A DNA stretch of 64,000 bases from the NCBI GenBank assembly GCA_047967505.1, contig CM106538.1; one strand, given 5' to 3'. The translations under genes and the position numbers were made by a program. The notes beneath the pieces were generated by a model that ran no database searches, was not told the origin of the DNA, and saw only the letters and a list, made by a program, of their open reading frames with translations. This stretch comes from Dipteris shenzhenensis (lineage: Eukaryota). Below, in pieces: positions 1-25,567 of this stretch; position 1 is the first letter of the stretch; each line of letters opens with the position of its first letter.

Positions 1-995
1 AATTTAGCAAGGGTATTCATGAGATTTTTTGAAAGAAATCATTGTTCTTGGACATTGAAACATTGTGTTGATATTCATTTCTTCTTTTTGTGTAGAAAAT
101 GGACATCTCATTTGAAAAGTAAATTCTTGAAAATCTCAATGCATTTGACCTTGCATCAAATGTTGGTTTCTTGTAGCAACACCCACAGAACACAAACATT
201 ATAAATTGTCCAATTGAGCTTATTCCATTGCAATCATATTCCGCTTTGCTAGAAATCCTTATTAAATGTGTTCAAACAAATGCAAACTTTGTCAATTCCC
301 CTTGTAAAATTCTTTCAAACCTTAACAATGACTCGTACAATCAAATTGCATGTGTTGAAGAGATTAAGAGAATGGTAACAAATATTTCTACTTCAAGATC
401 TTAACTATATAGTTGCTTGACGAGCTTTATAAAAAACTTGCATTGTTCATTCAAAGACATTTGTAAAACTAGTACAAATGCTACAAAGTTTTCATGCACA
501 TTTTCATGATAATATTTTAGTGCATACACTTTTATTTGATGAAACTACAATACCAATGCAAATATCACCTTTGCATCATATTCAATGTAAAGGAGCATAC
601 ATCCCCTAGACCAAAGAACATGAAAGTCAACTTGGTTTAATTCTTCGTAACACCCTTCAGTTAAGTGCTAAAGAGGTTGGTACCATATTCATTGAAACAC
701 ACAAAGATGCACCTTACAATTGCATGAAAGATATATAGAATGAAAGATGCAAATGTGGCAAAAGGATGAGAAAAGGACATACCAATGGTATTGAGAAAAG
801 CACACAAAACAAAGGAGGTGATATAAGAGAAGACAATTGCATCTCAAAGCAAAGAACAATGTTTGATTCAAGCAAGGAACAAGAAACAAGGAACATAAAA
901 GCAAGTAACTCTAGTGCCAATTGTGGACACTCTTCAACATTCTTGCAAATGTTGTCAAACGTTAACATTCTTGTCCAAGCTACACACTAAGTCCA

Positions 996-3900
996 ATGTT
1001 GACTCCATTTTTAATACAAAGTGATATCATTACTGCCGAAGTTCTTCCCAAAGAGAAGTGCTTATGCTCCATTTGTTTGAAATATATTAAGAGAAATATT
1101 TTACCGACTTTTTCCCATATCAACATGCCACTTCCAAAGAAAATGAAATACACTAGTCTTCTTAATGACATTGAAGCATGCCTTATTTCAGTTCGAATCC
1201 CTTTTGCACAAATTTGTGAGTTGATTTTTGATGGACAATGCGGCCTCAAGGGAAGCATTGTGAATGTGTTTGCTGATGTTGACAGAGCCCAATACGTACT
1301 ACTGAGGTTCCTTATAGATGGAGCAACAGCCATGGTTGGGATTAAAAGAAAGCTAGAGTACACTCATTATTATATGAGTGATTAGTAAGACCTACTTTGA
1401 TAATGCGTGCATTGAAGGAGCTACTTCCAAATTCCCTATACAAGGAACAAAAGGTCACATCAAACCACAAATGGGCTCAAAATATAGAGTCTTTGGGAGA
1501 AATTCAAATACAAGAGAACTCATCAAGAAACAACAACATGGACGATGACAATGACATGCTAGTACATCAGATTTACAATAGCCAACAAGTCATTGACTTC
1601 GAAGAGAAAACAATAAATATTGCACCCTCAAAAGGCTTCTCACCTTTAAGCACCTTCAAGGACAAACATTGTGAAGAGTTAGCATTCCCTCAACTATTTT
1701 ATGGACATGGACGCTTATACAATATATCGGATCGAACTTCATACCAAGACATTGCACAGTGGGAATTCACTAACAGTGATCAATGCTTTGCATTCTCCAT
1801 AGAAAACATCTTTTTTTAAACCATGAGAGTATTGGTGCGTCAAGTACTATCCTCAACCTGGGTTCGCATATGTGTAAAGTGCAATTGCGTGGACGAACAT
1901 TAAGAGAAAAAGACACACTGCACAACACTAACGTTGAGAACCTTCTCCATTCCAATATTGGACATCACTTCGCATCCATGTGAACATCATCCAACTACAA
2001 GATGAAGTTGCAAAAAGACCTATTTGCCATGGTTAGACAACTAAGAAAACTTTTTTTATTACTTTTTCATAAGTAGAAAGACTATGGGAACCTTTGTTGC
2101 AATGCTTGTTAGAAAGGCTTAGAAAGTCTTTGTGGAAGAGCCAAGAGATACCTCAGAGGGTACTCCTTTGCACAAATACAAAACTTGATTTGAAGAGATC
2201 CAATAACTTCAGCTCAGTATTATGTCCATAGATTCCAAGCAATCAAATGCTTGTTGAAACAAGATCCATTGATCATAGGGAAGGTGATGGACTACTCCTT
2301 TGTCATAGAATTTCAAAACCATGGTAGCCACCAACACGACCATGGGTTGCTTTGGATCAAAAACGCACCTACTGCGATGGTACTTCAGACATAGAAGAAT
2401 TTATCGGCAAATACATATGCTCTGACTTATCAAAGCTTGCCTTGCCTAATTCAAAAATCCAAAGACATAAACATCACAAGACTTGCCAAAGAAGAGGTAA
2501 AAAAGGTCATTTTGGTTTTCCTCGTGCACCCATGCACACAACAAAGTTGTTGAACCTACTACATACGGGAGAAATCATAAGCAATTCGAAAGACCAAATT
2601 AAAAGTATCACTAATCTTATGGAAAACACAACAGTACAACAACAAACTTTTGATGTGATTACCTCAAATAACTTCACATTACTGAAGAAGAATAGATACT
2701 AATTCTACGATCAAACATTAGCCAATCGACAATATTCATGAGGTGTGAACCAAAGGCTCACCAAAGGATGTCTTCACTAACAACTTCAATCCAACAATTT
2801 CCAAATTATGGGGTGCTAATACAGACCTCCAATTCATTCTCAATCCACATCAAGCAGGATCATATTGCACGTCATATATGACCAAAGAGATAAAGACACA
2901 ATTGACATTGTTCGTAAAGCATTTTCCATAGCATATGCAAGCATAGCCTACCAACCAATGAGCATCTACCCAAGGTTGGGAATGCCATTTTAAACACACA
3001 ACACATAAGCGCTCAACAAGTTGTGTACTTATGCTTGTCCCTTCCTCTCATTTCCACCACACAAGAGTTCTCCTACATTAACACCAACCCCATTGATGAG
3101 CGTACATTCCTATGGAAATGAAGACAAGACTTAGAGAAGTTGGACCCTTAAAGCAATGACATTTTCTTCGCAGACATTGTTACAAAGTATTTGCAATGAA
3201 AAACTAGCATGAATGATGTTTGCCTAGCATCATTCATAAGTGATTAAAAGGAATGCAAATGCCACCAAGAAACGAAAACATGAAAAAATAATGTTTCAAC
3301 AACAACAACAAAAACAAGGATCTAGAGAAACATTTCAGAGAGTTATGTCTACTGTACTTGCCATTTTCAAATGAAGAGCATACACTAACTACAGAATTTC
3401 CCACATGGCATGACTTGTATCAATACAACAAGAAAATATAGAAAACAAACGAAGCATATATAACAAACTAATACCAACCAGCACTATATCTACGAATTTC
3501 ACAACGGCAAGTTCAAAAACATCTAAAAACTACAAACACACTGCAACAAATCAAGAGTATGACTTAAACATCGAGCTGAATACAACGTAAAACAAAAAAC
3601 AATACATTGACAATGTCCTCTCACATACAAAGCACAACCAAATGAGGATTATCACTCCACAATGGGGAGATTGAATCAATGTAAACGACCAATAGTACAT
3701 GACATCCTGCTCAAGAAATGTTTAAGCCAACAGCGTAGTGCCATTGCGCCTTTTTCTAACATGTAATGCTAGCATAGGAAAAACATTCACTCTGCTTATA
3801 TTGATCCAAGCATTGGTAAGACATTACAATCATAAAAACACATCAGATGTTACTCTACCAAGGATTCTAATACTTGCATACACAAGCAAAGCCGCATTCA

Positions 3901-4823
3901 ATGTAGGTGGAACAATAATACATTCCACACTCCACTTGCCACTCATGACTTCCACATACAAGCCACTCTCAACTGAAATACTACAAACTCTCTCAACACT
4001 ATATGCAGATTTGGAGCTAATAGTTTTCGACGAGGTTTCCCTCATTGAGCAGAATACGTTTACCGCAACAGATATGCGAATGTGTGAGATAAAACACAAC
4101 CACTTGGAACCATTTGGTGGTGTGGATGTTTTGCTTTGTGGACACTTATGCCAAGCAAGTCCAACAAATGATGCATGGATCTTTTTTAACAGATCTACAT
4201 CATTGTCTATGGTACCATCCATTTGGAAAGACCATGTGATGTACTATGAACTAGAAGAAACAATGCGACAAAATGATAACACCTTCCTCACAATATTAAA
4301 TCATATATGATTGGGCACCCAAACACTTTCAGATCTTCAATATTTAAACAACCTATACAATCATACCCCAAAGTCAAAACATGAGACGCCACACCTATAC
4401 TATACAAACGTAGCAAAAGATAAACACAATGACGACGTCTTTCACATGCTAACTTCTGAACTAGAGCAAGAGACATTAGGCATAAGACTTGTAGCAAAAC
4501 AATCAACATACCAACAGACCCAAAAAGTATTGGAGGACTCCATGCAGAGCTATTCCTAAAGGTTGGTATGATTGTGGAACTTTGTTTAGGAAAAATGTGG
4601 ACCCAAAAAGTACTGGAGGACTCCATGTAGAGCTAAGCCTAAAGGTTGGTATGATTGTGGAACTTTGTGTAGGAAATATGGACATTGCAGATGGCTTAGT
4701 TAATGGAGCAGATGCCACTTTCATGGATTCTAACATCGACAACAAAGGAGCCATAGTATGGGTACATTTCAACAATCCCACAATAGGTTCGAAAACACGT
4801 AACATGAACTCAATGATCTATAC
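996..4823 (+). pseudogene. Degenerate Helitron/Helentron Rep-helicase (DUF6570-like region, HUH Rep, Pif1 helicase)
   Basis: LNDIEACLISVRIPFAQI..GQCGLKGSIVNV; EELAFPQLFYG; Rep motif 2 remnant EFQNHGSHQHDHGLLW (~2308-2355); QRHKHHKTC; motif 3 YCTSYMTK (~2863-2886); Pif1 motifs GKTF, AYTSKAAFNVGGTIIHS, FDEVSL, PFGGVDVLLCGHLCQ, LEETMRQ, GLVNGA. Many stops and frameshifts; ~83-bp tandem duplication at 4517-4676. Confidence 0.9.
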
Positions 4824-5221
4824 GAGGATTACCAAAAAGCCAGCAACAAAAAGCGAACGAGCCAAAAAAAGCGAGTAATAAAATTTTATAAATCCCCCAT
4901 TTCAGTAGCAAAAATTAATAACTTATTCAAAATACCATATGTTTCCTGAATGCTAGAAGGTTAAATATGCATATAACTTTAAAGCCACTAACACTAATTT
5001 CACATCATCCATGAGACAGTTTGTAGGTTTAATTTCCAAGTCATTGTTTGTATTAAATACAAACCCTACTTCAATCAAGTTCTCTCTTTCCACTAGAGTA
5101 ATTGAGATAATCAATGCAACCTTCCACACAAGTGGGGTGTTTCCAAGGACTCCTTGCATGGGTCATATGTAAATGCTTAGCTTTTTTAACTCTGTTCACT
5201 CTTGGAACAAAACCCATGTTT

Positions 5222-5253
5222 CATTAGGAAAAAAGGGAGCTCATTTTGGGGCC
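5222..5253 (+). repeat. Left inverted repeat (candidate TIR)
   Basis: 30/32 match to the reverse complement of 17033-17064. Confidence 0.85.
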
Positions 5254-5712
5254 TTTTACGGTTTGGAAAAATAAGCTCTCAACCAATCAATAGAAGGCCA
5301 ACGTAACGTTGAAAATTCATGAAAATAAGAGAAAATAGAAAAAAGAAACAATACTTTATGTAAGTACAAGCGTGCTACATTAATGAGGAGATTGGTTTTT
5401 TATTCTCAGAAGATCTTTGGACAAGAAGATAGAATCTAAACTGACATTTTATCTGACAAGATCCTTCCTGCTTCCACCTTCCTTTGAATTTTCAAATGTT
5501 GTGCCGCCTTTCGTGCAAAAGGTCTACCATTCTACACCATTGCCTCATTGTGCAACAGCCTTTCTTTTCCAAAACTGCTCCCTTGATCCTGTTTGGCGTA
5601 GAGTAAGATGTTTCTCGTCAACTGTCTGTTTGCCCACTTTCTCTTTCTTGAAACTTCAAATTGTTATCTTAGTTACATTACTTTGCTATTGTTACAGATT
5701 CAGAAAATCTCC

Positions 5713-7152
5713 ATGGTGAACCAAAACCATGGCCGTTCTTGTGGAAGACGCTCTGTGGATGATAATGCTACGAAGGCAGAATTATACCAAACATCCTTAC
5801 CCCGTCGACCTGCTTCTTCTATTTCGTCGGTAGAGAATTCAAGTACAGTCAAAACGGAAGGAACTTGGGAAAGGTTTAGTGTTTCGAAAGGAGCATGGGT
5901 GCTCATGCAACCTAGCAAAAGAAAAAGACCCCAAACAAAAAACATTTTCTTGGCATCGTGGAAGGGAAGAGTACGAGATTTTAAAATCACCAAAGGGAAG
6001 ATATCCGTGAAAGAAGTTTTGATTCAGCACGTGTACATGCATAAAGAACTTGTCTTGCGAGACTATCCAAAAAATCTTCCGCAACACAGGCCTAATTGTA
6101 TATTTTTCTATTGTGGTTTTTTTCTTGATGAGGTGTATGGATTTTTAAGATGAAGCTTTCTCTCTTAGCTTATTGACATTCTTGTGTTGTTTTATTTCAG
6201 ATTTATATCCTTCATCGTATGAGACATGGCAAAACATCGATTGTATTCTGGGATTTATAGATGTTCTGCATGGATCGATAGGAGAACAACAATACCAAGG
6301 TCGATGTGCAACAGAGCTAGCTCAATCGGGTATATTTTTTACTGATCATTTTTATCAGTTGCTGGACAAAGCTAACACACATGGTGTATTAATAAAACAA
6401 GACCTTCCGGCGTGGAATTCGGTGGATTGGCCTCACCCACATTCTAGTGTTACAGAGGCATATAGGGCGAAGCTTTTTACAGAAGTACAGAAAGCTCTGA
6501 GGCCCAATATTGCCACTAGGATAGTAAAAATTTCTTTGTGCATGCCTCTCACAGTTTTTGTAGACTTGTTTAATACCTTTCCAGTAAAGGTTTCAAAAAC
6601 AATGTTCACAGTTAAAGCAACAAATTCGGCATGCATGCCACAATTTTTGGATAAAGGTTGGGATAAGAAGACATGTAGTTCAGTGTTTTGTGAGGTGGTC
6701 CAACCTTCTATGCAACTGAAGTACATGGTTGCATCACAAAATTTTATTTTCTCTTTTTATTACAAGCGCAGTCGAATGCTAGGCACAAAGCTTGTCCCAA
6801 TGGATCAAGATGAAGAGTCTTTTGGTGCAGAAAATAAACTTATTGATATTGATGTTGTTGAGAATGGTGATGTGGTAGCCAATATCTCATTAAGAGAATG
6901 TTGCTCCCTAGCTCAATTGCGCAGTGACATTCTGTTTGAGACTGAAGGTTCTATCTCAAACGACTTTTTATTTATCTACAACAACAGAAAGGTACACCAT
7001 CTGATTTATCCTAGTCTCATTAAGCATTGCTATTAGTTTAATTTACCACTCTAATTCATATTGCTTTTTTGCAGTTACTCAGAAGAAGAGAGAGCTCAGT
7101 TAAATGCAAAGACATAGAAAATTTTAAAATTGAGATAACACAGACTCCATAA
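5713..7152 (+). CDS. BAH-like domain protein with possible C-terminal ubiquitin-like domain (exons 5713-6097, 6201-6991, 7075-7152; ~417 aa, intact)
   Basis: GT-AG introns give one open frame of 1254 nt. BAH-like pattern GAWVLMQP..SWKGRVRDF..VLIQHVYMHKEL..YLYPSSYETWQNIDCILGFIDVL..IFFTDHFY; C-terminal SLAQLRSDI..FLFIYNNRK is reminiscent of a beta-grasp fold. Confidence 0.65.
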
Positions 7153-7236
7153 AGAAAGGTTTTGTATTCAATCAAGTAAGATTTTGTACAGAACTGTTTA
7201 GCTGAATCTGTAGAACATATTTCTAACATCCATTTT

Positions 7237-9307
7237 CTATTTATGTACAGTTTCATCTACATTTTCTGGAGGATCTTCTCTCTGCTGCTCCATCCTGTCC
7301 GTGCTCCATCCTGTCTCCTCCACTGCCCCAGAAGCCTCTCTTTGCTGCTTCTTCACCTTCTCCTCAACATCAGCAGCAGGTCTTTGCTCCTGTGTCTGCT
7401 CCTCCTCAACACTCTGTGATTGCTCCTGTGGCTTCTGGTCCTCAGCATTAGGTGCTTCATCTGTAAGATCAAGGTGTATGACACCTTCTTGTACTTTAGA
7501 GCTTTCACCCAGCTCCACAGTAGCTGGTACAATAGGTTTGGGGGAGGCATAGCTCAAAAACCTCCAAATTGTATGAGCTCTAAAATTATGTACATAGTTG
7601 GGGCTGAAGGTATCCTCTTTCATCTGCAATGGCAGAGGATAATTTAGAACACTTTGTATCATTATGAATTATCTTCAAGCTAAATGAAATGTATTTTTCC
7701 TTACCAAATCTGGCTGTTCCTTCTCAAAGTAGCTTGAAAGTATATATTTTGCATTGATCAGCACCCTCCATCCACAGCTACTTGAATCATTTTGTTGTGG
7801 TGTCTGTACAGTTAGAAAAAAATGTTAGAAACTGTGAGCATCAGCACAAAACAAAATTATTCAATAAGTTCAAAGACATAGCATTTAATAGACTTTTTAC
7901 CTCTAGACTTATTGGCTCTATTGAATCCAAAAGAGAGACATTTGGAGGACAATGATCCAATGCATCTAATAGCCTTCTAATACAACTGCAATATGTATAA
8001 TTTAGTTAGTATGGTATCAAAATAATGAAGTTTTAAGTTCAAAAAGCACACACAGCACTTACAATTTCAGCTCTGTGTGTGTGTTTTTTAGAGAGTTGAA
8101 TAGAAAGCATTGCTTTTGCTGGATGTCAATAGACACAAAACTCCAGTGGTCACTGCATAAGGAAAAAAGCATAAGAAAATGAAAGGCTACAAGAGTTCCC
8201 AATATTAAAGAAGAATCTTAAAAGAAGTAGTCACCCACATACTTGCTATGGTATGGAAGTAGCAAAATATCAATTACTTCAAAATTGCAGTGTTTGAACT
8301 AGCTGGAAATACTCATGGGAGTCTCCTTTGCATCTCTTAATCTAGAAGAAATGGCTGGATCAACAATATGGACTGTATGCTATACAAAGGGGTGAAGCCA
8401 GCTTCTCATCATGCTGCATAGGATCAGAACATAATTAGGGTAGGTTATAAAGGAGTTACAAGGAGGATTGATTTGCAAAAAATGTAAAATTTATAGACAC
8501 TTACTAGAGCATTGCAAGAATGATAGTATCTGAGCAATACTCATTCTTGTTAGCCAATGCTGCTAAGCATTGTTTTGTCAAATCAAAATCATTGACTGAA
8601 ACTTCATCCTCAATATGTACAACTACATCAGGGCCCAACTCCTTCAACCTTCTATGTATGTGTAGCTCCTTCTTTCCAGTCTCCACATCTATAACAGATT
8701 TTGTTTCTTTTATTTGCTGCTTCAGTGAGTCCTCATAAGCAGCCTTCCCTCTGGTGTTCTTTGAGTGTGTTACCTCAACAACCTTTACCTCATCAACCTT
8801 CACCTTCCTTGTAGGTGGAATTAGCAATATATCTCTCATTTTGATGTCCTGCCATTCCACAAGATGAACCAGCTTGTCATACCTCCATCTCACTCTGGAC
8901 AAAGTGTTGAAGTCTTTGGCCATCAAAGTCACCCTGTGAGCATGGGCTGCTACAAGCATTGCATCCTCAAAATATTTCTCCAGGTAATCCTCTGCCATTT
9001 CCTGTAAGGAAAGAATGGCAGTTCTATTCCACCTGAACCCAAGGTTTCAACTGTCACAAATTTCTCTCACCAGTCTTTGAAAGGGTGCTTTGGGTATTGC
9101 AAAGCCTATAGCTTTTTGTTGCCTCCTTATCTCCCTTAGCACACCTGCACCCTTATTCAATATTTTGGCCTTTTGCTTGAGCAAGCTCATTGGCTTACCC
9201 TTCCTGCCATGTGCAGCTCTTCCCTTTGGAGTACCTGCCCTAGCTGCTGTTGCTGCAAGACCTGGTCCTTTGCCAACTTTCCTTGCAGTTGACTTGGTTC
9301 TTGCCAT
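7237..9307 (-). pseudogene. Histone H3-fold::Ulp1/SENP (C48) protease fusion (exons 9307-8505, 8413-8243, 8152-8063, 7985-7901, 7803-7705, 7623-7237; ~544 codons, 3 in-frame stops)
   Basis: MARTKSTARK..VLREIRRQQK..PFQRLVREI..LQEMAEDYL..FEDAML.AAHAHRVTLMAKD (H3 fold), continuing through phase-compatible GT-AG introns into SDTII, LLLPYHSNDHWSFVSID..FNSL and PQQNDSSSCG (Ulp1 motifs). TGA at 9049-9047 and two TAG stops in exon 2. Confidence 0.88.
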
Positions 9308-9400
9308 CACTCTGAAAAACTGCATACAAAGGATTGGAAAGAGATCACAGACATCTAACAAAGAAAAGGCAATCACAGGGGTGGAAGAAGCCAAATAGAG

Positions 9401-9473
9401 AAATTTGCAATAAAATGCGATATGAGCAGTTTGGAATTTCAAACAGGTCCACATCGCATTTTGCTGCAAATTT
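9401..9473. repeat. ~73-bp hairpin motif, copy 1
   Basis: AAATTTGCAATAAAATGCGA...TCGCATTTTGCTGCAAATTT; the same motif recurs three times at 10448-10930. Confidence 0.85.
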
Positions 9474-10447
9474 TTGAAATGAATTGCTGGTGCACTCCTA
9501 CAGTGATTTCTATGTTTCTCCAACCAAATACAGTATGAATGGAGGTTATGCAAGAAGATCACATGCAAATATCACACTTGAAGATCTGCATTTCTACAGT
9601 GATTTCTCTGTCTTGGTTTGAGTCTATGCATTTCCATGCAGGATGTATTTTTTCTATTTTAGGCAAGAAGATTGCAGAGACTAAGGGGAGAACCCATTGT
9701 TACTGACCTGGAATCTATATGTGGATGTGCTGTGCTGCTGAGGAGTAATCTGTGCTGAGGATGAACCTGTGCTGTTGGACAAGATGCTGATGCTGCAGAG
9801 TATGGAGGTAGGGAGGCAAGAGAGCAGAGACTGGAGGGCAAGAGGTCCAAAACAGGATACCACAAATAAGTGCAAATAGAATTAAAGAATCACTAAATCC
9901 CACACGTGTGGAATGTAGTCGTTTTTCACACATGTGGATGGGACCCAGATCTCTTGGAGTTTGAAATTTGGCACGTGTGAAAGTACACTTTATTCCTTGG
10001 AACTTGTGCCATTCATGATTTCATCATCAATACCACAACCACTTTTCCCTCCCCTGGATCCCAATCTTTCATCCCTGCCACGACCCTCGCATCTTCCATT
10101 TCCTTCTCTCTGATCCTTTCCTACCCAGCACACTCCATCCAGACTGCAACCTGCCTGAAGACAGTACTGCCAGATCTCCAGGTTACCTAGAGTGCAAAGT
10201 TCAAGCTAGAGAAAGAGCAGGAGATTTACCAGTGCAACTCAATCAGCATGGAAAAGGAAAAAAAAGGTCAGAATTCTAGTTTGGTTTCAATGTTTTTCAA
10301 CATTTAGTTCTTCCATCCATTGGATTTTTTATGTCCCAATGTCTTCACTCAGCTCCATCCTTCTTCTTACATTTTCAATTAATACTGTTCAAGAATGTGG
10401 TAAATCACCCAGAAATTAGATTGTAGGTTGATATGAATAGAAACAAG

Positions 10448-10935
10448 AAATTTGCAACAAAATGCGAGGAGAGTGGTTTATAATTCTCTAAACAGCCCAT
10501 ATCGCATTTTGCTGCAAATTCCTGTTGTTGACTCCTTCCTCATGAAAAGTTTCACTCATTCCATTATTTCTCTTGCATATGAGATCATAGTGTCCAGGAA
10601 TCACTGATATGAACCAAGTGCTTGATTTGACATGCACATGAACAGAACTTGAGAATTTGCAACAAAATGTGAGGAGAGTGGTTTATAGTTCTCTAAACAG
10701 CCCATATCGCATTTTGCTGCAAATTCCTGTTGTTGACACATTCCTCATGATTAGTTTCACTCATTCCATTATTTCTCTTGCATATGAGATCATAGTGTCC
10801 AGGAATCACTGAGATGAACCAAGTGCTTGATTTGACATGCACATGAACAGAATTTGAGAATTTGCAACAAAATGCGAGGAGAGTGGTTTATAATTCTCTA
10901 AACAGCCCATATCGCATTTTGCTGCAAATTCCTGT
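10448..10935. repeat. 205-bp tandem repeat (~2.4 units), each unit starting with the 73-bp hairpin
   Basis: Near-identical units beginning at about 10448, 10653 and 10858. Confidence 0.9.
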
Positions 10936-11210
10936 GTATTATTTGTTTCTCACTTCTACCTCATTAATTTGCTATCTTTAGCCCTGTGGAAATCTTCCTT
11001 GATGATGAGAAATGTTTTTGTTTTGGAATAGCTGGCTCCCAGGCCCCACCTTTCAAGAGGAAGCTGGACTTTTCTGCTGCTATTATTAGACCACAGCAAT
11101 CACCAGGTGAGTCATGAGATGTCATGAAGGAATTATCTGGTGATATACAATGCATTCACTGATTGCATATGTCAACATATAGAATTCATAGTATATAAGT
11201 TTTTGAACAG

Positions 11211-13631
11211 GCAAAAAGAAGAGGCTGGAGCAGAGTGCTGATTCTTCCATCAAAAAACAAATGGAACCAGAAGAGGACAGTTCTCCAGATTTGCTCCTAT
11301 TTGAGTTTCTTCACAAATGCAAGGCTCAGAGTAACTTCCATATATACCACAGTATTTTCAACATGGAGTTCACAATGAGCTCTGTACTGGAGTAGCACAA
11401 AGATTTTCTTTCAGACTATTGGGATGCCTTCAAAGAACTGACAGAGGCAGGAAGAATTGTGGGAAGAGAAAAGGTTTTTGTGCACCTAAATCATATTGTC
11501 TCCAATGACAGGCTGAGGTACCATGTGAACAGAAGATTTGACAGCCTGCCTGATCACTATAAATTCAACTGTACTTTGCACACCAGAAAGTGCAGAGTGC
11601 TGGAGGAGAGCATGGCATTTCTTATGTACATTGTCTTCAGTCAGGAGTCTTTGGATGAACAAGGGCAGGAAATAGAAGAAGAAGACACATCTGAAGCTTC
11701 TGAAAAGGAGGATGTTTCTTTGGTCACAGAAATGGCAGAGCAAGAAGAAGATATCAACCTTCAGGATGAGGGGCTGCAAGTGGCTGCTCTTGACCTTGTT
11801 CAACTGAGGACAAAAACTCTGAGGGGAGCAGAGCCAGTTGAAGATTTTGATGTTCAGAGCAGCAACTATGCAGTGCCCATGCTTCCAGGTGTGTTGATTG
11901 GTGGAAAGGATTATGTTTTCCTCCATGATATAGAGTGTATGTTTGATTTGAGGGAGCTCCATCAAATTGAATAATCCAAGATGTCATCACACCAAGACGA
12001 GAATTCGGACATCCCAAGTTTCTCGGTAGTCCAAAATAGGTAGGAGAAGAGGGTGGGGAGAATTCAACACTTGAGCCAAACGTTCAGCACCAAATAAACT
12101 TGCAATTCTTTGTTGATAGTTTATCTTAAGCCCAAAAAGAATTACAATTTGAAGCTCGAAATGAGGCACAAAAGGCTGATTAGGTACAAATGGATTCCTT
12201 GGTCGAAACATTACCAACCATAGCCAAGGCCTAGAAACCTTTGTAATGAGATTGTGAATAAACCATTCAGGACGAGCTTTTCCACAGGAATCAACAAGCA
12301 GATGCGCCAAATCTCCCCCCAAGCTTGGGGAGCATCCCACCCTTCGAAGAAGGAAACCGTTTTGATTACCTCTGAAGCAGCAAGTAGGGCTACTGCAAGG
12401 TGATCATATGTGAGTTTACATTCCATCACCTCCCCTTAGTGCATGCATTGCTACTTAAGGTGGTCAAGTGTGGCTTTTACATGTCAATACCTCCCCTCGG
12501 TGCTTACATGGCTACTCTTAGGTGGTCAGGTTTGATTATAAGAATATAGGCTAAAGGTGGCAAGGATGTTGCTTCTTAATGTTGATGATGATTGCTTCTT
12601 TGCTTGATGTAGCTTGATGCATGATGCTTTGTTATTCCATGTGGCTTGATGCTTTATGTGTGGATGCCACGTTATGGGCTATGGTCATCTCAATGCAATT
12701 TCCCTTATTGCCCAGGCTTCAAGGCTTGACAAGGAGGTTGGCATAGAGGATGACCATTCACTACTGGCTTTGGAAACAATGTTTGATCCTATAGAGGCCC
12801 TTTCATTTTGTTTCAAAGAGGCTGAAAGGTTCCAAGAGCCAGATGAAGCTGCCTTCTAGCTCACATAGGAAGCTATGAATCTCTCAGCACTATACACAGA
12901 AAAGCCTAAAGAAGAGGCTGGACAAGAAGGGAGAGGGATAAATCTTTGGAAAGATGAACTGCTTGTTGCTGATGAAAATGAGAAGGTACTTCAAATCATA
13001 TACTTTGACTTCTGCTTAACTTTGTTTTTGTAGGTTGTGTATTGTCTCACTCCAATCCTTTGATATGTTGCAGCTACAAATTGAGGATGACACATTCCTC
13101 CAGAAATCAAGTGGAAGCAGGCAGGTTGGGTTTCGCAAAATGTCAGGCCTAGCTCATTATATTCATGATCTAGGCAGTGCCAAGATCTTGATTTACCATA
13201 GGCAGTTGAGCAACAATGGAGAAGCCATTGTTTACTTCCTAAAATGTTTGTCCAGGGCTTTAGGAGGACATGCTCTTTCATGGCAAAAGGAAAAGATCAT
13301 TTTGATAGAGAGGTTGTCTGCCATAGATATATTTGGAGATTATGTGAATAAGCAGGCCTCTAGGGCCGCTTACTTTTTGTCTTACATTTCTTATGCATTA
13401 GCATGTGGTGTTAAGGAGCCCAAATATCTGGAGGGCTATGGAAAACACCAGCTCGTAAGGTTTCGAGAGCCACCCATGATTGCATCAAGCCACACAGTCC
13501 AAGAAGAGGAACAGGTGGAGAGAGCTGAAGAAAAGGATAAAGAGACAGTCGACATCAAGCCAATAAAGAAGAAAAAGACTCCAATCAAGATCAAAAAGAG
13601 AGTTCCGATCGGCAGGCCCTGGGAGAAATAG
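11211..13631 (+). pseudogene. Disrupted multi-exon cargo gene of unknown function (gene C); a short first exon may lie near 10248-10266
   Basis: Exon-like frames after AG acceptors at 11211-11980, ~12716-12986 and ~13074-13631; several TAG/TAA stops; interrupted by an LTR fragment; acidic central tract and basic C-terminus. Confidence 0.65.
11982..12697 (-). mobile_element. Truncated LTR-element fragment (3' internal region, PPT and one LTR of ~447 bp)
   Basis: Minus strand reads AAGGGGAGG-TGATGGAATG...GATGACA; 12380-12697 is the reverse-complement homolog of ~48400-48680. Confidence 0.75.
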
Positions 13632-13935
13632 GATTTAGTCATCGAATATAGCACAAACATTATATTAAATTTGAACTGATTTGTATAAAGTCTTTGATAT
13701 CTGATTAATAAGTTGATGATGAAATAATTTGTACATTTACATAGAGTGGTGTCGTTAAATATTAAATGAACAATATATTGAAATTGTAAACAAATTGTAT
13801 TAAGTTCAGATCATATGTTTCACATTGAAATACTTTTCATGCATAACACCAAGAGTCACTTGTTCCACTAAAAAAATTTCTATTGAATGAGTTTGAAAAC
13901 ATGTGGACATAACACCAATAAGTTACAAATGAGTC

Positions 13936-16672
13936 CTATTCATGTTTACTTGTCCATTTATGGTTTCTAAATATCTTCGATTCCCTCCATTGTCTATGTC
14001 TCTCTGCTGCAATTGAATTGTCTAGAGCTTGTCTTCGTCTTTGCTTTTGGGCTAGAAGAAAAGCAAGCTTGATTTTGGAGCTAGCAACTTTTCTTTTAGC
14101 ATGCAGCCTCTGTAGTATGCCTCGGTAAAACCATTGGAAGACTTCCTTCAGACTATTCGCCTTCTGACTCCCTCCATAGTGTTGTGTGTGTCTAAAAAAT
14201 GCATTACGTGCCATGTAGTGAGACGTCTCCATGCCTTGGGTAGACCAAATAGCTGGGCATCCATACTTTTTGACAAAATAGGGAAGGTGGTTGTATATGA
14301 TATGCTGTAAGACATAAGAATGCATAGTAAGTAATAAAAAAAAAGAGGATCACACTTAAGTAAAAGAAAAAGACATAACCTTACCATGTAGTGAGTTATA
14401 TTGCAGGCTGTCCACGCGTCTTTCATTGACTTTCCAAAATGTTTAATTGCCTCCTCAAAGTTCTTGTAATCACTCTTTGTCCATGTTACTTTGTCACAGA
14501 ACATGAAGAGTTGATCAAGAGACCTCCACACCTCTGCCTTCCTATTTCGTGCTTCCCCATCTGCCTCATGATCTTTCACAGCATTATGGACTTGCTTCCA
14601 CAATCCATAATTAATCTTTGAAACTGCTCTACCTTGCCTTACTTGCTTACTGTGTTTGGGTCGAGACAAGAATCTTCTTGCCTTAACACCACCAATAGAG
14701 GGCTTGATTGGTACCTCCTTGCCATTGGTAGACTTTTTAAAATCCTTTGTGATTTGAACATCTCCTCCATGCAGACCTATATCGGATAACACTTTTTCCA
14801 ATGCTTGAAGAGCATCCTTTCTATTTTTTTCGGGACGGAGTTTCCAAGCAAATCCAATATATAAAAATACCAATTTCTCAATAATTCGACATAGACCATG
14901 CAATGTGCAGATGTGAACATTACATAGTGGAATGTCCAGAATGGCCTTGAAGTCAGGGTCAACTTTATCTCTATTAGGTGCTCTCTTCCACCATTTTGAA
15001 TCCACTACTTGAGCTGATTCTTTGCAGTAAAGACAAGGAGACTTTGAGTTGCCTCCTTTACTAATGTTATACATGCACTTAAGTGTTTTAAGATCCCCGG
15101 CCATGTGCCACTCTACTTGAAAATCACCTTTTCCTGCAACATGGAGATTCTCGCCTTGCACTTGTCTTTTGATTATTCTTGGTATTTCCGTGTGGTGAAA
15201 CACCCAATCTAGTGTTTCATGGTCTTCGGTCTTCACCTGCGAGATTATAGAAAACAAAAGTATTACTATATCAGATTTGAAAACAATGACCAAAATCAAG
15301 TATAAAACAACCCATGATCATACTTGGAACGAGCCTAACCACCATATGTGTTTCTCTGACTGCACACTAAAATACTTCGAACTCGCTTCAGTCAATGATG
15401 TATCAATTGCTCCATTCATCAATGTAATAGTAACTCTTTCCATTTTCTTTTCCTTTACAACCTCACACTCATCCAGTTTGATAACAAATTTTAAAATGCC
15501 TTTGCACTCCTCAAATGTTATTCCATAAAACTCGACCATTCTTTTTTGAAGTTGTTGCAGATCTAAAAATATATTGTTCCAAGGATCATACACAGTGGTT
15601 CCTTTAACACCATGAAATATTTCTTCAATATGGATATATTGCCCAATAAATTCATCTATACTTTCATTCAAATGACCTCTTATCCTCCACACGGTTGCTG
15701 GATTTGGCAGTAAAACTCGTTTAATCCTTTGATCTTTCAAAGTTGAGGATATCGCATGGAAAATCGAACTATATCCCTTCCTGCTAACTCCACTAACATC
15801 AAGAGCCTCTTGGATTATAGTGCCATCAACTTGATTATTGGATACAAAGTCCTCTACAACATTGCGTTTGACTGTTTTGTATTTTTTTTCCTCAATCAAA
15901 CCTTTTGCTACACCGCAAGAAAGCAATCCTTTCATTTGTTTAACAGGAAGAAGGTTTGGGTCCATATTTTCTTTTGCAGGCTCCAATAATTTCCTGTAGT
16001 AACAACACAATATGACTATATTATTCAGCACCTCCATTCTTATTTTGCGACAATCAACGAAATAGATATAGTCTGGAAGAGAGCCTTTTTGAGTATACAA
16101 AATGATAAATTTCAATCTAACCTTGCTTCCTGAATTCGTCGCTTGCATCCACCAGTCCCAGCCTTTAAATTTGCAATGTTTTTAATCTTCCTGCTACGTA
16201 GTCTGTCTCCAAGCACGGTTCTCTTCTTTCTTGCTCTTGTCAACTCTTTTTTACTCTTTGAATGCTCCTCAATTTCATTCTGCAACTGCTGCTCCAATTT
16301 TGCACGAATGGCTATCTCCTCCATCTTGGCCCCCTTTTCTTGTAGGTACATCATTTTATACGTTTCCGCAAATGCAGACTGCGCGGAAATATAACCAAGA
16401 AGTCCATTTTGTCCATCGCCGGCAAACCTCAGTAATGTGGTGGGATTGACAAATGGAGGTGTAGAGTTTTTTACTTGACATTTTGGATATATGCTTCCAT
16501 CACACCATAAGTCAATATGTTGAAGCCCTTCTCTTCTCATATTTTCCCGCTGTTGAGCATTCAGCACCGTATCCTTTCGTCTTTTTTGTGCTGGAGCATA
16601 TTGTTCTTCTAAGTCGATGTGAAGATGGTGTAATCGCTTCTTCTCAGATAGTGACTCACTAGTATCGGCCAT
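13936..16672 (-). CDS. RAG1/Transib-like DDE transposase (exons 16672-16122, 15993-15324, 15236-14385, 14304-13936; ~813 aa, intact)
   Basis: Spliced ORF of 2442 nt without internal stops. Motifs in RAG1-core order: VIKLDECE (D1), QSEKH, EDHETL, AGDLK (D2), CLYC, ICTLH, ITHYMHIIYNH, AIWSTQGMETSH (E). Confidence 0.85.
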
Positions 16673-17032
16673 TTTTTGTGCTTCCCAGGTTGCGAAGTTT
16701 GTTTTTCAATCTCATAGTCGTTTTGTAACATGAATCGTGGAAGTGTGGCGGTATCCATGTGAATATTTTCAATCACTAAGTTCAGTGATGGACTCTTTAT
16801 GAAAGGCCTGCACACGTCGGCCAAAGAGATGCGGAATCTTTAGTAAACAAAAAAAAATCTAAGAGGATATTTAATACAAAATCGTGTTAGTCAGACAAAA
16901 GATTATCTTATTCCTTTTTGAATTGACAGTTCTATAGTCCTTACTGACAATTCTGAGCCACGTTTCCGTATTTTACTATTTTTGAGGTCTTTTAGGAGAG
17001 AAATAAATCAAAAAATAGTGAATTTCTTACAG

Positions 17033-17064
17033 GGCCCCAAAATGAGTTCCCTTTTTCCCTAATG
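17033..17064 (-). repeat. Right inverted repeat (candidate TIR); terminal TTCCCTAATG repeated at 17087-17096
   Basis: GGCCCCAAAATGAGTTCCCTTTTTCCCTAATG. Confidence 0.85.
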
Positions 17065-17124
17065 CTTTGTTACTGCAAAAATATCCTTCCCTAATGATTT
17101 ATTCTTACCTCCCTCTAAGCTTAC

Positions 17125-17515
17125 CAATGCAACAAATTGACCACAAATTCATATTTTGGTGCATTAAATTTTACTAGATGGTGCACAAAGACATGATAAT
17201 CATCGGAAATACACCTTGCCATTTGATTTGATATGTAACATGACCCCATTTGGACTTGTAAATCAAAAGATACAGGGATGTGAAAATGTCGTCTTTTGGG
17301 ACAAAACAGGGATTTCACATCCTTTTTTGGCCCAAAAGATGAGTTTTTAACGTCCCTGCATCTTTTTATTGTCAAATATAAATGGCATAATGTTACATAT
17401 TAAATCAAATGACAAGGCATGATTTAGATCAATATCATGCCTTTTTGCACCATCTAAAAAAAATTGTCTGCATCAGAATATTATTTTGTGAAATTATGTA
17501 CAATTTTTTGCACTA
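17125..17515. repeat. ~400-bp imperfect foldback (MITE-like)
   Basis: Arm AGATGGTGCACAAAGACATGAT..CCTTGCCATTTGATTTGATATGTAACAT pairs with ATGTTACATATTAAATCAAATGACAAGG..ATCATGCCTTTTTGCACCATCT; centre near 17314. Confidence 0.8.
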
Positions 17516-22260: not shown

Positions 22261-22996
22261 CTACACACATTGGTCCGACATTCAATAATATACACAAGCA
22301 TTTCGCCTAGTCATTAGGCCCAATGAATCATATTCATCTTGTTTCCTTTTGGTGAGTAGGGGTCAATACATGCCACAAGTATGCGGGCGGCGAGGTTCCT
22401 CCTGCCTACGTGTCACGAATTTCGGCGAAGTGCCAGGCTGAAGCCCACCTGTCGAGGCCGCGTGAATGGTGGACTCAATGAGTTTTTGGCATGTGGCAGG
22501 TCGCCCCTGTAGAAGAGGCTTATGCATTTCGGCAAGACTCTGTGTAAAGGCCCTAACATTTCGATTTCATGAGAGTCGAAAGAGCTTGCAAAGGTGTGCG
22601 CAGCGATCATGTGCAGGTAGACAGAATGGCTTCTGCCCGATTCAAGAGACCAATGCTTGCAGATTGGAGGCTCGGAAGTCAACTATGATAGTCGAAATTT
22701 TGTCGAGATCTTGTGGCGACAAGAACTGCTTTATGCACGCTCTGCAATTGAATCTCGCCTCAGACTGACGAGGTAAGTCAGATGAGACGCTTCTTGGATT
22801 GAAGATCAGTCTTGCATATTCGCTTTGGAACTGCGTGAGATATCCGGATATGAGTCCAAGTTTGCTATAGCACTTTGAAGCTTTTGTTTAGAATTGCCCG
22901 GGTGGATTGGAAAAGAAACTGATATCCAAATAAGTTCAGTCATACACCTTTTAAATGTTTCACAAAATGATGTAGGCAATTCAAGCTGCAAAACAT

Positions 22997-25567
22997 ATGA
23001 TTAAGCTGGCATTAAATGCGTCTTCCACAAAGAGGTTCTGTCTTCTTTTGCAAAAGTGCATTAACAAGAAAGACTTGACCGTAGGACGGAAAGTGTATTC
23101 CGTCATTGCAAAAAATGGATTAGAGCTGGATGCATTTCTGGGTAGCTACCTGATACGCATGTTTGCTTCATGTGGTAGTTTTTCAGAAGCCAACCTACTG
23201 TTTCACAAATTGCCTGAACAAAATGTATTTACATGGAGTGCAATCATTTTAGCACATGTTAATCATGGACAAGGTGACTGGGCCATTAAATTGTATAGCA
23301 AGATGCTACGATCGGGGGTGAAGCCAGATGGACATGTTTTTGTTGCTGTTCTGAAAGCATGTTCCAGTGTAGAATCTCTGTCCTATGGCAAGCTGATTCA
23401 CTCTCATATAATCGAAAGTGGCTTTGAGTTGGATACATATGTGGTCAACACTTTGGTTGATATGTACGGAAAATGTGGTAGCGTTGATGATGCACTTCAA
23501 GTATTTAATGACTTGCCAAAACCAGATGTGGTGGCATGGAATTCAATGCTCGCAGCATATATCCAGCTTGGGAATGGCCAGGCAGCTCTGCAGCTTTTTC
23601 AGCATATGGAAGACAAGGGCAATAAACCAGACAATTACACATTTGTCAACGCCTTGAAAGCATGTTCCAGCTTAGCAGCCTTGTATCAGGGCAACTTGAT
23701 TCATGCCAACATTATTGAAAGTAATTTGAACGTAGATGCTTTTGTTTGGAGCAGTGTAATTGACATGTACTCCAAATGTGGGAGTGTTGAGGATGCACGC
23801 AAAGTATTTGATAAATGTCCAAAGCGTGATGACGTGATGTGGAATGCAATGATCACAGGATATGTGGTGTGTGGCATGTCAGAAAAGGCTTTCCTATTCT
23901 TCCAGCAAATGCAACTAGAGGGAAAAGTTCCAGACAATGTCACATTTGTGAACGTTTTAAAAGCATGTTCCAACATGGCAGTATTGGGTCAGGGCAGGTT
24001 TTCTCATACCCAAGTCATTGAAAGGGGCTTTGATGTAGATGTGGTTGTTGGTAACACACTTGTTGACATGTATGCCAAATCTGGCAGTCTGAAGGATGCA
24101 CGCAGAGTGTTTAATAGTTTGCCTAAAGATGATATGGTGACTTGGAGTGCAATGATTGCAGGATACTCCCAACATGGGCATGCTAAGGAAGCTCTCAGAC
24201 TTTTCCAGCAAATGCAGCACGAGGGCAGGAAGCCGAACGTTGCTACTTGGAATGCAATGATCGCTGGATGTGCTCAGAACAAGCTTGGCCTTGTTGCTCT
24301 TGAACTTTTCAAGCAATCACAACAAGAAGGCATGAAGCCAGATAATGCCACATTTGTCGGTGCGCTGAAAGCATGTTCTAGTCTGGCAGCTTTAAGTGAA
24401 GGCAAACTAATTCATGCTTTAATAGCTCAAAATGGTGATGAGCTAGATACATTTGTTGGTAACACCCTTGTAGACATGTATTCCAAGAGTGGGAATATTG
24501 AAGATGCATCTGAAGTTTTTCAAAAGTTGCCAAAGCCAGATTTAGTGACGTGGAATGCAATGATTGCAGGACAGGTCCAGCATGGCAGTGCTCAAGTGGC
24601 TCTCCAACTTTTTCAGCAAATGCAACAGGAGGGTTGGAAGCCTGACCAGGCCACATTTCTAAGCATAATGAAAGCGTGCTCCTTAACAGTAGCCCCAACT
24701 CAGGGCAAGTTAATTCATAATATTATAGTTAGATATGATTGTGAGTCAGACATGTTCATTGGCAACTCACTCATTGATATGTATGTGAAATGTGGCAGTC
24801 TTCAAGATGCTCTCAGTGTATTTGACAAACTGCCAAAGGATAGTGTGGAGACATGGAATGCAATTATTGCAGGATATGCACTTTCTAATGACTATGAGCT
24901 GGCTCTGCAGGCTTTTGCAGATATGGAACTGGAAGGCTTAAAACCAAATGAGGTTTCATTTCTGTGTCTTCTTTCTGCATGCAGTCACATGGGTTTTGTG
25001 GTTGAAGGCTGCAACCATTTCAATACCATGAAAGAAGAATATGGAATCACACCAATGCTCGAGCATTACAATTGCGTAGTAGACCTGCTGGGTCGTGCAG
25101 GATGCTTGAAGGAAGCAGAACATCTTCTTCAAACCATGCCATTTCAACCTGACATTGTCAGTTGGATTTCTTTGCTTAATCATTGCAGATTGTATGGCAG
25201 AATGGAGCTTGGAAGACGATGTTTTGACCGCATCAATTCTATGGATTGTACAACTGCATCTGCGCATGTACTTATGTCCTGCATTTATGGTGATGCTGGC
25301 ATGTCCAATGATGCAGACAAAGTTCGAGAGGTGATAGGATTTGCAACTGTGTCGAAAAAGCCAGGAAAGGCTTGTATAGAGGTCAATAATAAGGTACACG
25401 ATTTTGTTGTGGGAGATAGAAGCCACCCACAAATTCATGGTGTCCATGCAAAGCTGAACAGTTTGAGCTGGTACTTGAAGAGTAAAGGACATGTGCCACA
25501 GGATGGCCTAGTACTGCAGCCATTTTCTAGTGAGGACAAGGGGGACGGGCTTATGTTGATACATTGA
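22997..25567 (+). CDS. PLS-class pentatricopeptide repeat protein (organellar RNA-editing factor type) with E domains and a truncated DYW:KP-like domain
   Basis: Intronless 856-aa ORF with repeated P-L-S triplets (WNAMI, TFVxxLKAC, LVDMYxKCG), HYNCVVDLLGRAG, KKPGKACIEV..HDFVVGDRSHP..GHVP; decayed deaminase sequence follows the stop. Confidence 0.95.
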   Translation: MIKLALNASSTKRFCLLLQKCINKKDLTVGRKVYSVIAKNGLELDAFLGSYLIRMFASCGSFSEANLLFHKLPEQNVFTWSAIILAHVNHGQGDWAIKLYSKMLRSGVKPDGHVFVAVLKACSSVESLSYGKLIHSHIIESGFELDTYVVNTLVDMYGKCGSVDDALQVFNDLPKPDVVAWNSMLAAYIQLGNGQAALQLFQHMEDKGNKPDNYTFVNALKACSSLAALYQGNLIHANIIESNLNVDAFVWSSVIDMYSKCGSVEDARKVFDKCPKRDDVMWNAMITGYVVCGMSEKAFLFFQQMQLEGKVPDNVTFVNVLKACSNMAVLGQGRFSHTQVIERGFDVDVVVGNTLVDMYAKSGSLKDARRVFNSLPKDDMVTWSAMIAGYSQHGHAKEALRLFQQMQHEGRKPNVATWNAMIAGCAQNKLGLVALELFKQSQQEGMKPDNATFVGALKACSSLAALSEGKLIHALIAQNGDELDTFVGNTLVDMYSKSGNIEDASEVFQKLPKPDLVTWNAMIAGQVQHGSAQVALQLFQQMQQEGWKPDQATFLSIMKACSLTVAPTQGKLIHNIIVRYDCESDMFIGNSLIDMYVKCGSLQDALSVFDKLPKDSVETWNAIIAGYALSNDYELALQAFADMELEGLKPNEVSFLCLLSACSHMGFVVEGCNHFNTMKEEYGITPMLEHYNCVVDLLGRAGCLKEAEHLLQTMPFQPDIVSWISLLNHCRLYGRMELGRRCFDRINSMDCTTASAHVLMSCIYGDAGMSNDADKVREVIGFATVSKKPGKACIEVNNKVHDFVVGDRSHPQIHGVHAKLNSLSWYLKSKGHVPQDGLVLQPFSSEDKGDGLMLIH

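Follow-up and report, generated by a model that had tools for sequence, protein, structure and literature searches.

The question of whether a core histone can be encoded together with a protease as a single protein, and of what would carry and profit from such a gene, is raised by a stretch of 64,000 nucleotides (nt) of contig CM106538.1 (assembly GCA_047967505.1) from the fern Dipteris shenzhenensis, which is plant DNA and is referred to at its full length as the window. On the minus strand of the window a histone H3 is followed in the same reading frame by a domain resembling the Ulp1/SENP proteases of the C48 family, and the gene, designated H3-C48, lies between the terminal inverted repeats of a mobile element. 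Ulp1 domains and an H3-like gene are each known as transposon cargo, with roles that are not understood, and are here joined in one protein. Taken as a whole, the evidence points, with a probability that we place at about 0.7, to a fern gene family encoding H3, a linker, a C48 domain and an acidic tail, which is carried as cargo by a transposon. The family is of interest for both chromatin and transposon biology, and is represented here by a dead copy with a function that we infer.

The H3-C48 gene begins with the ATG at 9307-9305 and ends with the TAG at 7239-7237 on the minus strand, and its six exons (Table 1) are separated by introns of 91, 90, 77, 97 and 81 nt. All five introns are bounded by GT-AG and the spliced coding sequence of 1632 nt (544 codons) is in frame, so that the five phase-compatible introns proposed in the initial annotation are retained. 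When the spliced product is aligned with the annotated Adiantum proteins P0003 and P0009, all five exon junctions are unbroken, and this continuous homology supports the exon joints. The fusion of histone and protease is, moreover, independent of splicing, since a single exon, exon 1, encodes both the H3 fold and the first helix of the protease. It is hardly credible that the histone and the Ulp1-like domain belong to separate neighbouring genes, or to adjacent pseudogene fragments, and are joined in appearance only. The exons past exon 1 are short, four of the five corresponding pieces lack a C48 match when each is compared with Pfam by itself, and P0003 and P0009 are each missing one exon. 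However, exon 1 passes from the H3 fold to the first protease helix without a stop or frame change, and both domains of a further relative, P0205, score above their Pfam cut-offs. Furthermore, five independent open reading frames (ORFs) on other, short ENA/Logan contigs (P0010, P0011, P0013, P0015 and P0018) begin with Met-Ala-Arg-Thr-Lys (MARTK), continue across the linker as far as the first protease helix, end where intron 1 starts in the window and align end to end with window exon 1. The continuity of exon 1 and the same architecture in the relatives thus uphold the original proposal that the two domains belong to one gene.

The copy at 9307-7237 is dead, as was likewise first proposed, because it is interrupted by three in-frame stop codons (TGA at codon 87 and TAG at codons 279 and 306). 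For the TGA at 9049-9047, a compensating 1-nt deletion or insertion that would remove the stop was initially proposed. The ORFs at 9047..9571 and 8504..9046 abut, however, leaving an identical frame on either side of this codon and no frameshift in the gene, and the H3 alignment is without gaps at this point. A single substitution therefore explains the TGA and an indel is not needed.

The histone part of exon 1 matches the Pfam Histone family (PF00125) over residues 39-135 with an E-value of 8e-26 (91.1 bits; cut-off 26.4). Among the PDB sequences, 176 match the H3 part at E<=1e-3, and the best 60 of these 176 are all of the H3 or CENP-A type, with a top score of 84.5 bits to an H3.1/CENP-A chimera and scores of 75-79 bits to H3.1, H3.2 and H3.3 chains. 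The alignment with H3.1 is gap-free over the fold, and identity to canonical-type H3 amounts to 43.6% over 133 positions. Helices alpha-N, alpha-1, alpha-2 and alpha-3 of the histone fold are present, judging from the gap-free H3.1 alignment and from the model of P0205, in which helices are placed at residues 30-58, 65-78, 85-117 and 122-139 of a histone half of low confidence (predicted local distance difference test, pLDDT, about 50). A His and an Asp, which we take to be the residues forming the H3-H3' interface (four-helix bundle), are kept in AAHAHRVTLMAKD. The tail starts with MARTKSTARK in the window copy and with MARTKQTA(R/K) in members of the family, where the first nine residues are nearly canonical and constitute the best-kept part of the tail, while the later H3 tail motifs are lost. 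By these comparisons, the window copy encodes a divergent but complete histone H3. The linker which follows it carries the family motif (D/K)xKM(R/K)DILLIPP, and in the P0205 model the region between the H3 fold and the C48 domain consists of a segment of low confidence, after which come a long helix and a beta hairpin.

Eight proteins longer than exon 1 match it, three of which are Adiantum proteins of 499-551 amino acids (aa) with the same H3 and linker start. A search with P0003 (A. capillus-veneris, 511 aa) retrieved 146 proteins at an E-value of 1e-3; among the best 120 of these, ten (P0009-P0016, P0018 and P0019) cover 31-69% at E<=4e-29 and the others match in the H3 fold only, nine of the 120 listed matches having been examined as sequences. 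When P0009, a relative with the protease part only, was compared exhaustively with 1.84 billion representatives by phmmer, ten proteins, including the query, were retrieved at E<=1e-3, and no ordinary Ulp1 was reached at this threshold. The named members of this phmmer family derive from Adiantum nelumboides, A. capillus-veneris and Ceratopteris richardii. The initial annotation had pointed to intact paralogs as a check, and the fusion is found in the relative P0205 (A. nelumboides, 403 aa), which carries both Histone (2.6e-23) and Peptidase_C48 (25.6 bits) above the Pfam cut-offs. Peptidase_C48 also exceeds its cut-off of 20.7 bits in P0206 (Ceratopteris, 34.4 bits) and P0199 (22.8 bits), falls below it in P0202 (20.1 bits), P0198 (17.0 bits) and P0003 (15.8 bits), and is not matched by Pfam in P0009 and P0203. 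On this sequence evidence the H3-C48 fusion is a real, conserved gene family of ferns, found in at least two fern genera in addition to the species of the window. The relatives are numerous in A. nelumboides (P0001, P0002, P0019, P0198, P0203, P0205, P0207 and P0208) and often truncated or chimeric there, a pattern which is typical of repeats.

Exon 3 of the window copy alone (DHWSFV..FNSL) reaches 19.4 bits (E-value 0.001) against Pfam Peptidase_C48 (PF02902), just under the cut-off. Across exons 2-6 the expected residues follow one another in the order seen in Ulp1, namely the Trp site (a stop in this copy), His-Trp at 8148-8143, Asn-Ser-Leu at 8097-8089 in place of the Asp-Ser-Leu of Ulp1, Gln at 7794-7792 and Cys at 7776-7774. 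The stretch TPQQNDSSSCGW corresponds in the alignment to APQQRNGSDCG of P0077, whose C48 score lies far above the cut-off. Ten sequences hold the segment after the His-Trp (the window, P0009, and P0198-P0206 minus P0204; the P0003 gene model lacks this exon). The His-Trp is present in all ten family sequences and the Gln and Cys in 6/6 of those holding that exon, while the Trp of the WF motif is near-invariant; this Trp and the Trp after the His are presumably those which clamp the Gly-Gly tail of SUMO in SENPs. Overall identity among the family proteins which keep these residues is only 25-55%, suggesting that activity, or at least the pocket, has been retained. In the catalytic-Asp column, about 17 residues after the His, Asn is found in nine of the ten family sequences and Ser in P0198, with Asp only in the outgroup P0077. 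The Asn at 8097-8095 was recognised in the initial annotation and taken as a sign that the copy is dead; its presence is confirmed, but Asn is the state shared by the family, ancestral rather than a sign of damage. As the Asp of the strict C48 triad is not found, the domain is called C48-like with a variant triad.

Tests of the fold were performed by comparing AlphaFold2 models of the relatives P0206 and P0205 with the PDB using Foldseek. Model confidence was modest for P0206 (pLDDT 63) and good for the protease half of P0205 (pLDDT 75-92). The top matches for both models were SENP2, SENP7, SENP1, Ulp1, SENP5, NopD and NEDP1, with E-values of 7e-8 to 1e-5 and a probability of 1.00, the template-modelling score on the target reaching up to 0.70 at an identity to solved SENPs of only 14-21%. 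The Pfam scores of the relatives and these structural matches together indicate that the second domain is predicted to adopt the fold of a C48 protease.

The variant triad bears on a different reading, in which a transposon-borne family exists as described, but with a C48 domain that has no cutting activity and instead serves as a SUMO- or ubiquitin-binding module, or in which the protein acts outside nucleosomes as a histone mimic, offering ARTKQTARK as a decoy to the enzymes or readers of H3 Lys4/Lys9. This is unlikely, though plausible. It would account for the replacement of the canonical Asp in all members (Asn in 9/10, Ser in 1/10), for the low Peptidase_C48 scores (17-34 bits) and for a tail in which the first nine residues are nearly canonical and the rest are not. 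It would not lead one to expect, however, that the His, the oxyanion Gln, the Cys and two Trp would be kept at 25-55% identity, which is unexpected for a dead enzyme, or that the whole histone fold would be kept beyond the tail, including the presumed H3-H3' interface residues His and Asp. Furthermore, the pS273R enzyme of ASFV (African swine fever virus) is described as an active SUMO-protease-like cysteine protease in which the triad is Cys-His-Asn (C232-H168-N187; PMC9920524).

The acidic tail behind the protease domain had also been taken to hold a SUMO-interacting motif (SIM). The VIHLDLTDE at 7482-7456 is present and, with VIHL as hydrophobic core and DLTDE as acidic flank, fits a loose SIM pattern. 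As a motif it does not stand, since the window protein contains three matches to this pattern and 12% of 1000 shuffles reach three or more, while the relatives have no SIM match at the aligned place, where their sequence is unrelated. The SIM-like motif is thus neither conserved nor beyond chance, and is not considered a feature of the family.

A context that went unnoticed in the initial annotation is that the H3-C48 gene lies within an element of 11,843 nt. The 37-nt inverted repeats at its ends are 89% complementary, with 30 of the first 32 nt identical between the ends, and the repeat core is found at these two sites alone in the window (0 expected by chance). Assembled contigs of three public DNA runs were placed on 4800-17500, and in two of the three runs a contig (one from X1 and one from X2) joins 5221 to 17065, omitting exactly 11,843 nt with ends CA..TG. 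These joints, placed precisely at the outer ends of the repeats, show 5222-17064 to be a discrete insertion, whether or not the contigs represent an allelic empty site. All 30 bins of the stretch are covered by X1 contigs, of which as many as five distinct ones overlap at a single position, so that more than one version of the element exists. The inverted repeats of the window were not recognisable in 13 related loci. The H3-C48 gene is the cargo of a DNA transposon bounded by terminal inverted repeats, and the likely beneficiary is therefore the element and not the host.

Table 1. Positions of the H3-C48 gene, its parts and the surrounding element in the window
Feature	Position	Strand	Remarks
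H3-C48 fusion pseudogene	7237..9307	-	6 exons, 544 codons, 3 in-frame stops
Exon 1	8505..9307	-	H3 tail and fold, linker, first protease helix; single reading frame
Exon 2	8243..8413	-	holds TAG 8382-8380 and TAG 8301-8299
Exon 3	8063..8152	-	catalytic His 8148-8146, then Trp; Asn 8097-8095 at Asp position
Exon 4	7901..7985	-	from gene model and family alignment
Exon 5	7705..7803	-	oxyanion Gln 7794-7792 and catalytic Cys 7776-7774, in TPQQNDSSSCGW
Exon 6	7237..7623	-	end of protease domain, acidic tail, VIHLDLTDE 7482-7456, stop 7239-7237
Histone H3 part	8888..9307	-	residues 1-140: MARTKSTARK tail, alpha-N, predicted histone fold
Linker	8543..8887	-	residues 141-255, ~115 residues; family motif
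C48 (Ulp1/SENP-like) domain, predicted	7552..8542	-	end of exon 1, exons 2-5, start of exon 6; end at 7552 approximate
Stop TGA	9047..9049	-	codon 87, inside H3 fold; Cys, Phe or other residue in relatives
Stop TAG	8382-8380	-	codon 279, exon 2; Gln in relatives
Stop TAG	8301-8299	-	codon 306, exon 2; near-invariant Trp of WF motif in relatives
Mobile element	5222..17064	.	11,843 nt, contains H3-C48 gene; inverted repeats and flank-joining contigs
Left terminal inverted repeat	5222..5258	+	37 nt, starts CATTAGG
Right terminal inverted repeat	17028..17064	-	37 nt
Two adjoining ORFs	5602-7036	+	183 and 295 aa; convergent with H3-C48 gene
205-nt tandem repeats	10382-10996	.	three units, between the two gene pairs
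Second conserved gene	11270..13631	+	tail to tail with transposase-like gene; ~736-nt interruption 11957-12692
Transposase-like gene	13942..16705	-	no stop in homology-supported exon segments

The largest of these further genes resembles a transposase. Its large ORF has 70 homologues at E<=1e-3, mostly on short, fern-like contigs and, where named, from Ceratopteris and Adiantum, and a Pfam domain is found in none of the 70. The stop at 15320-15318 was considered as damage and rejected, as it sits in an 87-nt GT-AG intron which is absent from the homologous ORF at the related locus L002; a second GT-AG intron follows ..ITHYM. No MULE or other transposase Pfam family was detected in any ORF of the element, the Pfam comparison of the ORFs at 5602-6153, 6149-7036, 11396-11974, 13020-13631 and 14148-16705 returning nothing meaningful. 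The nearest protein-atlas clusters of the transposase relatives are RAG1 and DUF1280 (0.95-0.96). One relative, P0194, reaches an E-value of 0.0019 against Pfam RAG1 (16.8 bits; cut-off 25), and 15 of its 20 PDB matches are RAG1 (E-values 0.013-0.41). Its stretch ..THYMH....H..W.TQGME.. aligns with ..TNYLH....H..W.SEGNE.. of RAG1, which we take to hold the His-x4-His zinc site and the catalytic Glu. The family profiles A1 and A4 gave no PDB matches at E<=10. An affinity of the transposase-like gene to RAG1/Transib is thus weakly hinted at, all scores being below the family cut-offs.

The second conserved gene, for which no family was found in Pfam or the protein atlas, is also arranged tail to tail with the transposase in the loci L001 (about 3090-3681, minus strand) and L002 (3258-4884, minus strand), as determined with tblastx, and one X1 contig has a joint from 11956 to 12693, i.e. 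without the ~736-nt interruption seen in the window. The two adjoining ORFs at 5602-7036 have no match in the related loci.

At a distant contig, L007 (RHMF01029035.1), an ORF without introns which belongs to the same transposase family (3-1586, plus strand) is followed after ~90 nt by an H3-like gene that stands alone and has a long loop 1 (1675-2229, plus strand; Pfam Histone 7e-34). A possible second start of the form MxRxK.. occurs in L007 at about 2710. Both transposon-linked H3s, in the window and in L007, score slightly better to the H3.1/CENP-A chimera than to bulk H3 (84.5 versus 75-79 bits and 101 versus 96 bits, respectively), and the L007 H3 also scores slightly better to fission-yeast Cnp1 than to bulk H3, which gives a faint hint of CENP-A-like features in loop 1/alpha-2 of the two proteins.

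The linkage between the fusion gene and the transposase bears on the question of whether a fern chromatin gene with a host function has simply been caught by chance, the window copy being a dead transduplicate with no role for the element. Uptake of host gene fragments, which then decay, is reported to be frequent among plant transposons (PMC13317346), and a chance capture would agree with an H3-C48 copy which is dead while the transposase-like gene looks open, and with a fusion-transposase linkage that has been seen once. The captured unit is, however, a complete gene with all its exons and introns rather than a fragment, the numerous truncated and chimeric A. nelumboides relatives are repeat-like, the same transposase family adjoins an H3-like gene in L007, and the H3-C48 and transposase families are both found in the same two named fern genera. 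Chance capture is accordingly regarded as quite improbable.

Several further points nonetheless weigh against a transposon-borne family with a working protease. The canonical catalytic Asp is absent from every family member seen, so that the C48 domain may serve for binding without catalysis. Missing exons or chimeric structures are common among the annotated relatives; P0207, for instance, is fused to retrotransposon sequence. No clean target-site duplication was recognised at the flanks of the element (TGTTT on the left, CTTTG on the right), and the flank-joining contigs may derive from another, related species or from a paralogous flank copy instead of an allelic empty site. The linkage of the fusion gene itself to the transposase has been seen in the window only. 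Among the 13 related loci, an H3-like gene lies beside the transposase in L007 only, where it is without the Ulp1 part, the other 12 holding under about 2 kb downstream of the transposase, which is too short to tell. Moreover, the L007 H3 resembles canonical H3 at least as closely as it does the fern H3s, and may therefore be a separate acquisition. Finally, three stops are found in the 1632 nt of H3-C48 coding sequence against none in the transposase-like exon segments, a hint, from a transposase gene model which is unfinished, that the cargo is dispensable for the element.

With the family read as transposon cargo, the mechanism which best fits the known roles of H3, Ulp1/SENP enzymes and SUMO, together with the precedent of the KIU/VANC-Ulp1 genes of seed plants, is that of a chromatin-tethered protease acting on ubiquitin-like proteins in the service of the element. 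It is put forward tentatively, as one which is somewhat more apt to prove wrong than right. The H3 fold requires H4 and is handled by the H3-H4 chaperones, and H3 which is tagged at its C-terminus still enters nucleosomes. In intact copies, the H3 part would pair with H4, and the fusion would be handled by the H3-H4 chaperones or be built into nucleosomes, with the ~115-residue linker, by analogy with tagged H3, possibly holding the protease outside the particle. The H3 part would thereby place the protease on chromatin, where it would take off SUMO or a different modifier of the ubiquitin-like kind. SUMO is what Ulp1/SENP enzymes take off their substrates, and both heterochromatin and the silencing of transposons are supported by it; the gain for the element could thus lie in weakened SUMO-dependent silencing or in easier transposition. 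In the window copy, any such function would have been ended by the three nonsense substitutions.

A more far-reaching version, in which RAG1/Transib-like fern transposons encode an H3 variant with a working C-terminal protease for SUMO or ubiquitin-like proteins, and in which this variant enters nucleosomes and erases SUMO-dependent silencing marks as a counter-defence, is doubtful. In this version a dedicated deposition route may be used, as the region from loop 1 to alpha-2 scores slightly better to CENP-A-type sequence than to bulk H3. Were the version true, it would represent a histone bringing its own eraser, used by a mobile element against the defences of its host. The family as such would show a core histone tolerating a large enzymatic extension at its C-terminus. 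That the protease may reach chromatin by way of the histone fold is a testable idea, since Ceratopteris can be transformed.

Aside from the genes, several repeats and neighbouring features were observed. A 53-nt inverted partial copy of the 205-nt tandem repeat unit is located at 9383-9438, directly upstream of the H3-C48 start codon, and subterminal or internal transposase-binding repeats, or a promoter, are candidate roles for the 205-nt repeats. A ~310-nt repeat at 12388-12700 recurs in the opposite orientation at 48400-48681 with 77.5% identity and is probably a small nested repeat; the copy at 12388-12700 coincides with the highest summed depth of X1 contigs. Just outside the left end of the element, a PIF1-like helicase fragment (3726-4310, plus strand; Pfam 2.6e-18) is probably a Helitron remnant, and the element may have landed in another repeat. 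Further along the plus strand, a repeat-rich ORF of 863 aa (22976-25567) and a set of ORFs at 35258-39680 were judged by eye from their translations to be pentatricopeptide-repeat-like and of the Ty3/gypsy gag-pol type, respectively.

No paper on a histone H3-Ulp1 fusion or on this element was found in the literature, supplements being outside the scope of the search (Supplementary Table 6 of 10.1101/2021.11.30.470311, on transposon-chromatin gene fusions, might bear on novelty), and H3-C48 is therefore compared with systems that share one or other of its parts. One of these is P0077, which likewise encodes an H3 (Pfam 9e-42), a linker and a Ulp1 domain (Pfam 6.5e-23) in one uninterrupted ORF of 549 aa on an ENA contig of 6349 nt. 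It differs from H3-C48 in its near-canonical H3 (77% identity), its unrelated linker of proline-rich repeats and the Asp kept in its Ulp1 domain. It is thus probably an independent H3-Ulp1 fusion, which suggests more than one origin of the combination. In a scan of viral contigs with P0077, 27 loci matched the H3 part only (residues 1-136) and none of the 27 matched the Ulp1 part.

The Ulp1/SENP enzymes (MEROPS C48, PF02902) share with H3-C48 the predicted fold and the order of the His-Trp, oxyanion Gln, Cys and upstream Trp, but have a catalytic Asp where H3-C48 has Asn, and in H3-C48 the domain sits behind a histone. The ASFV pS273R enzyme has Asn in its triad, as H3-C48 does, and so shows that Asn is compatible with activity (PMC9920524); it is a viral enzyme for polyprotein processing without a histone part. 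The fern family would offer a naturally occurring test of whether a C48 protease works when Asn takes the place of Asp.

Transib ends start with CAC and Transib elements produce 5-bp duplications, while the element in the window has ends starting with CATTAGG and no 5-bp duplication was seen at its flanks. The likeness to Transib/RAG1 lies in the weak best matches of the transposase relatives, which are to RAG1 only; if confirmed, this still weak likeness would place a RAG1/Transib-like transposase lineage in land plants.

A counterpart for the histone is H3L, a histone H3-like gene in a hAT transposon of Pyrenophora tritici-repentis (PMC3538342). In both systems, a divergent H3 lies between the inverted repeats of a DNA transposon and is amplified with the element; H3L, however, is a stand-alone gene in a fungal hAT, whereas the fern H3 is fused to a protease and accompanied by a transposase which is not of the hAT type. 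Transposon-borne Ulp1 domains are also listed for the Ginger paper (PMC2836005). The nearest parallel among transposons is provided by KIU/VANC-Ulp1, the transposon-borne Ulp1 genes of KI-MULE/VANDAL elements, which are presented as part of an anti-silencing system (PMC13317346). These genes, carried by VANDAL (Kaonashi) elements (non-TIR MULEs, i.e. without terminal inverted repeats) in Arabidopsis and other seed plants, combine a Ulp1 domain with a chromatin-directed part, are borne by transposons and have a proposed role in anti-silencing, as H3-C48 would have. They differ in the partner of the protease, which is VANC rather than a full H3, in the Asp found where the fern family has Asn and in their occurrence in seed plants rather than in a fern, and while VANDALs are non-TIR MULEs, the H3-C48 element is bounded by terminal inverted repeats and carries a transposase-like gene without a MULE signature (no Pfam match).

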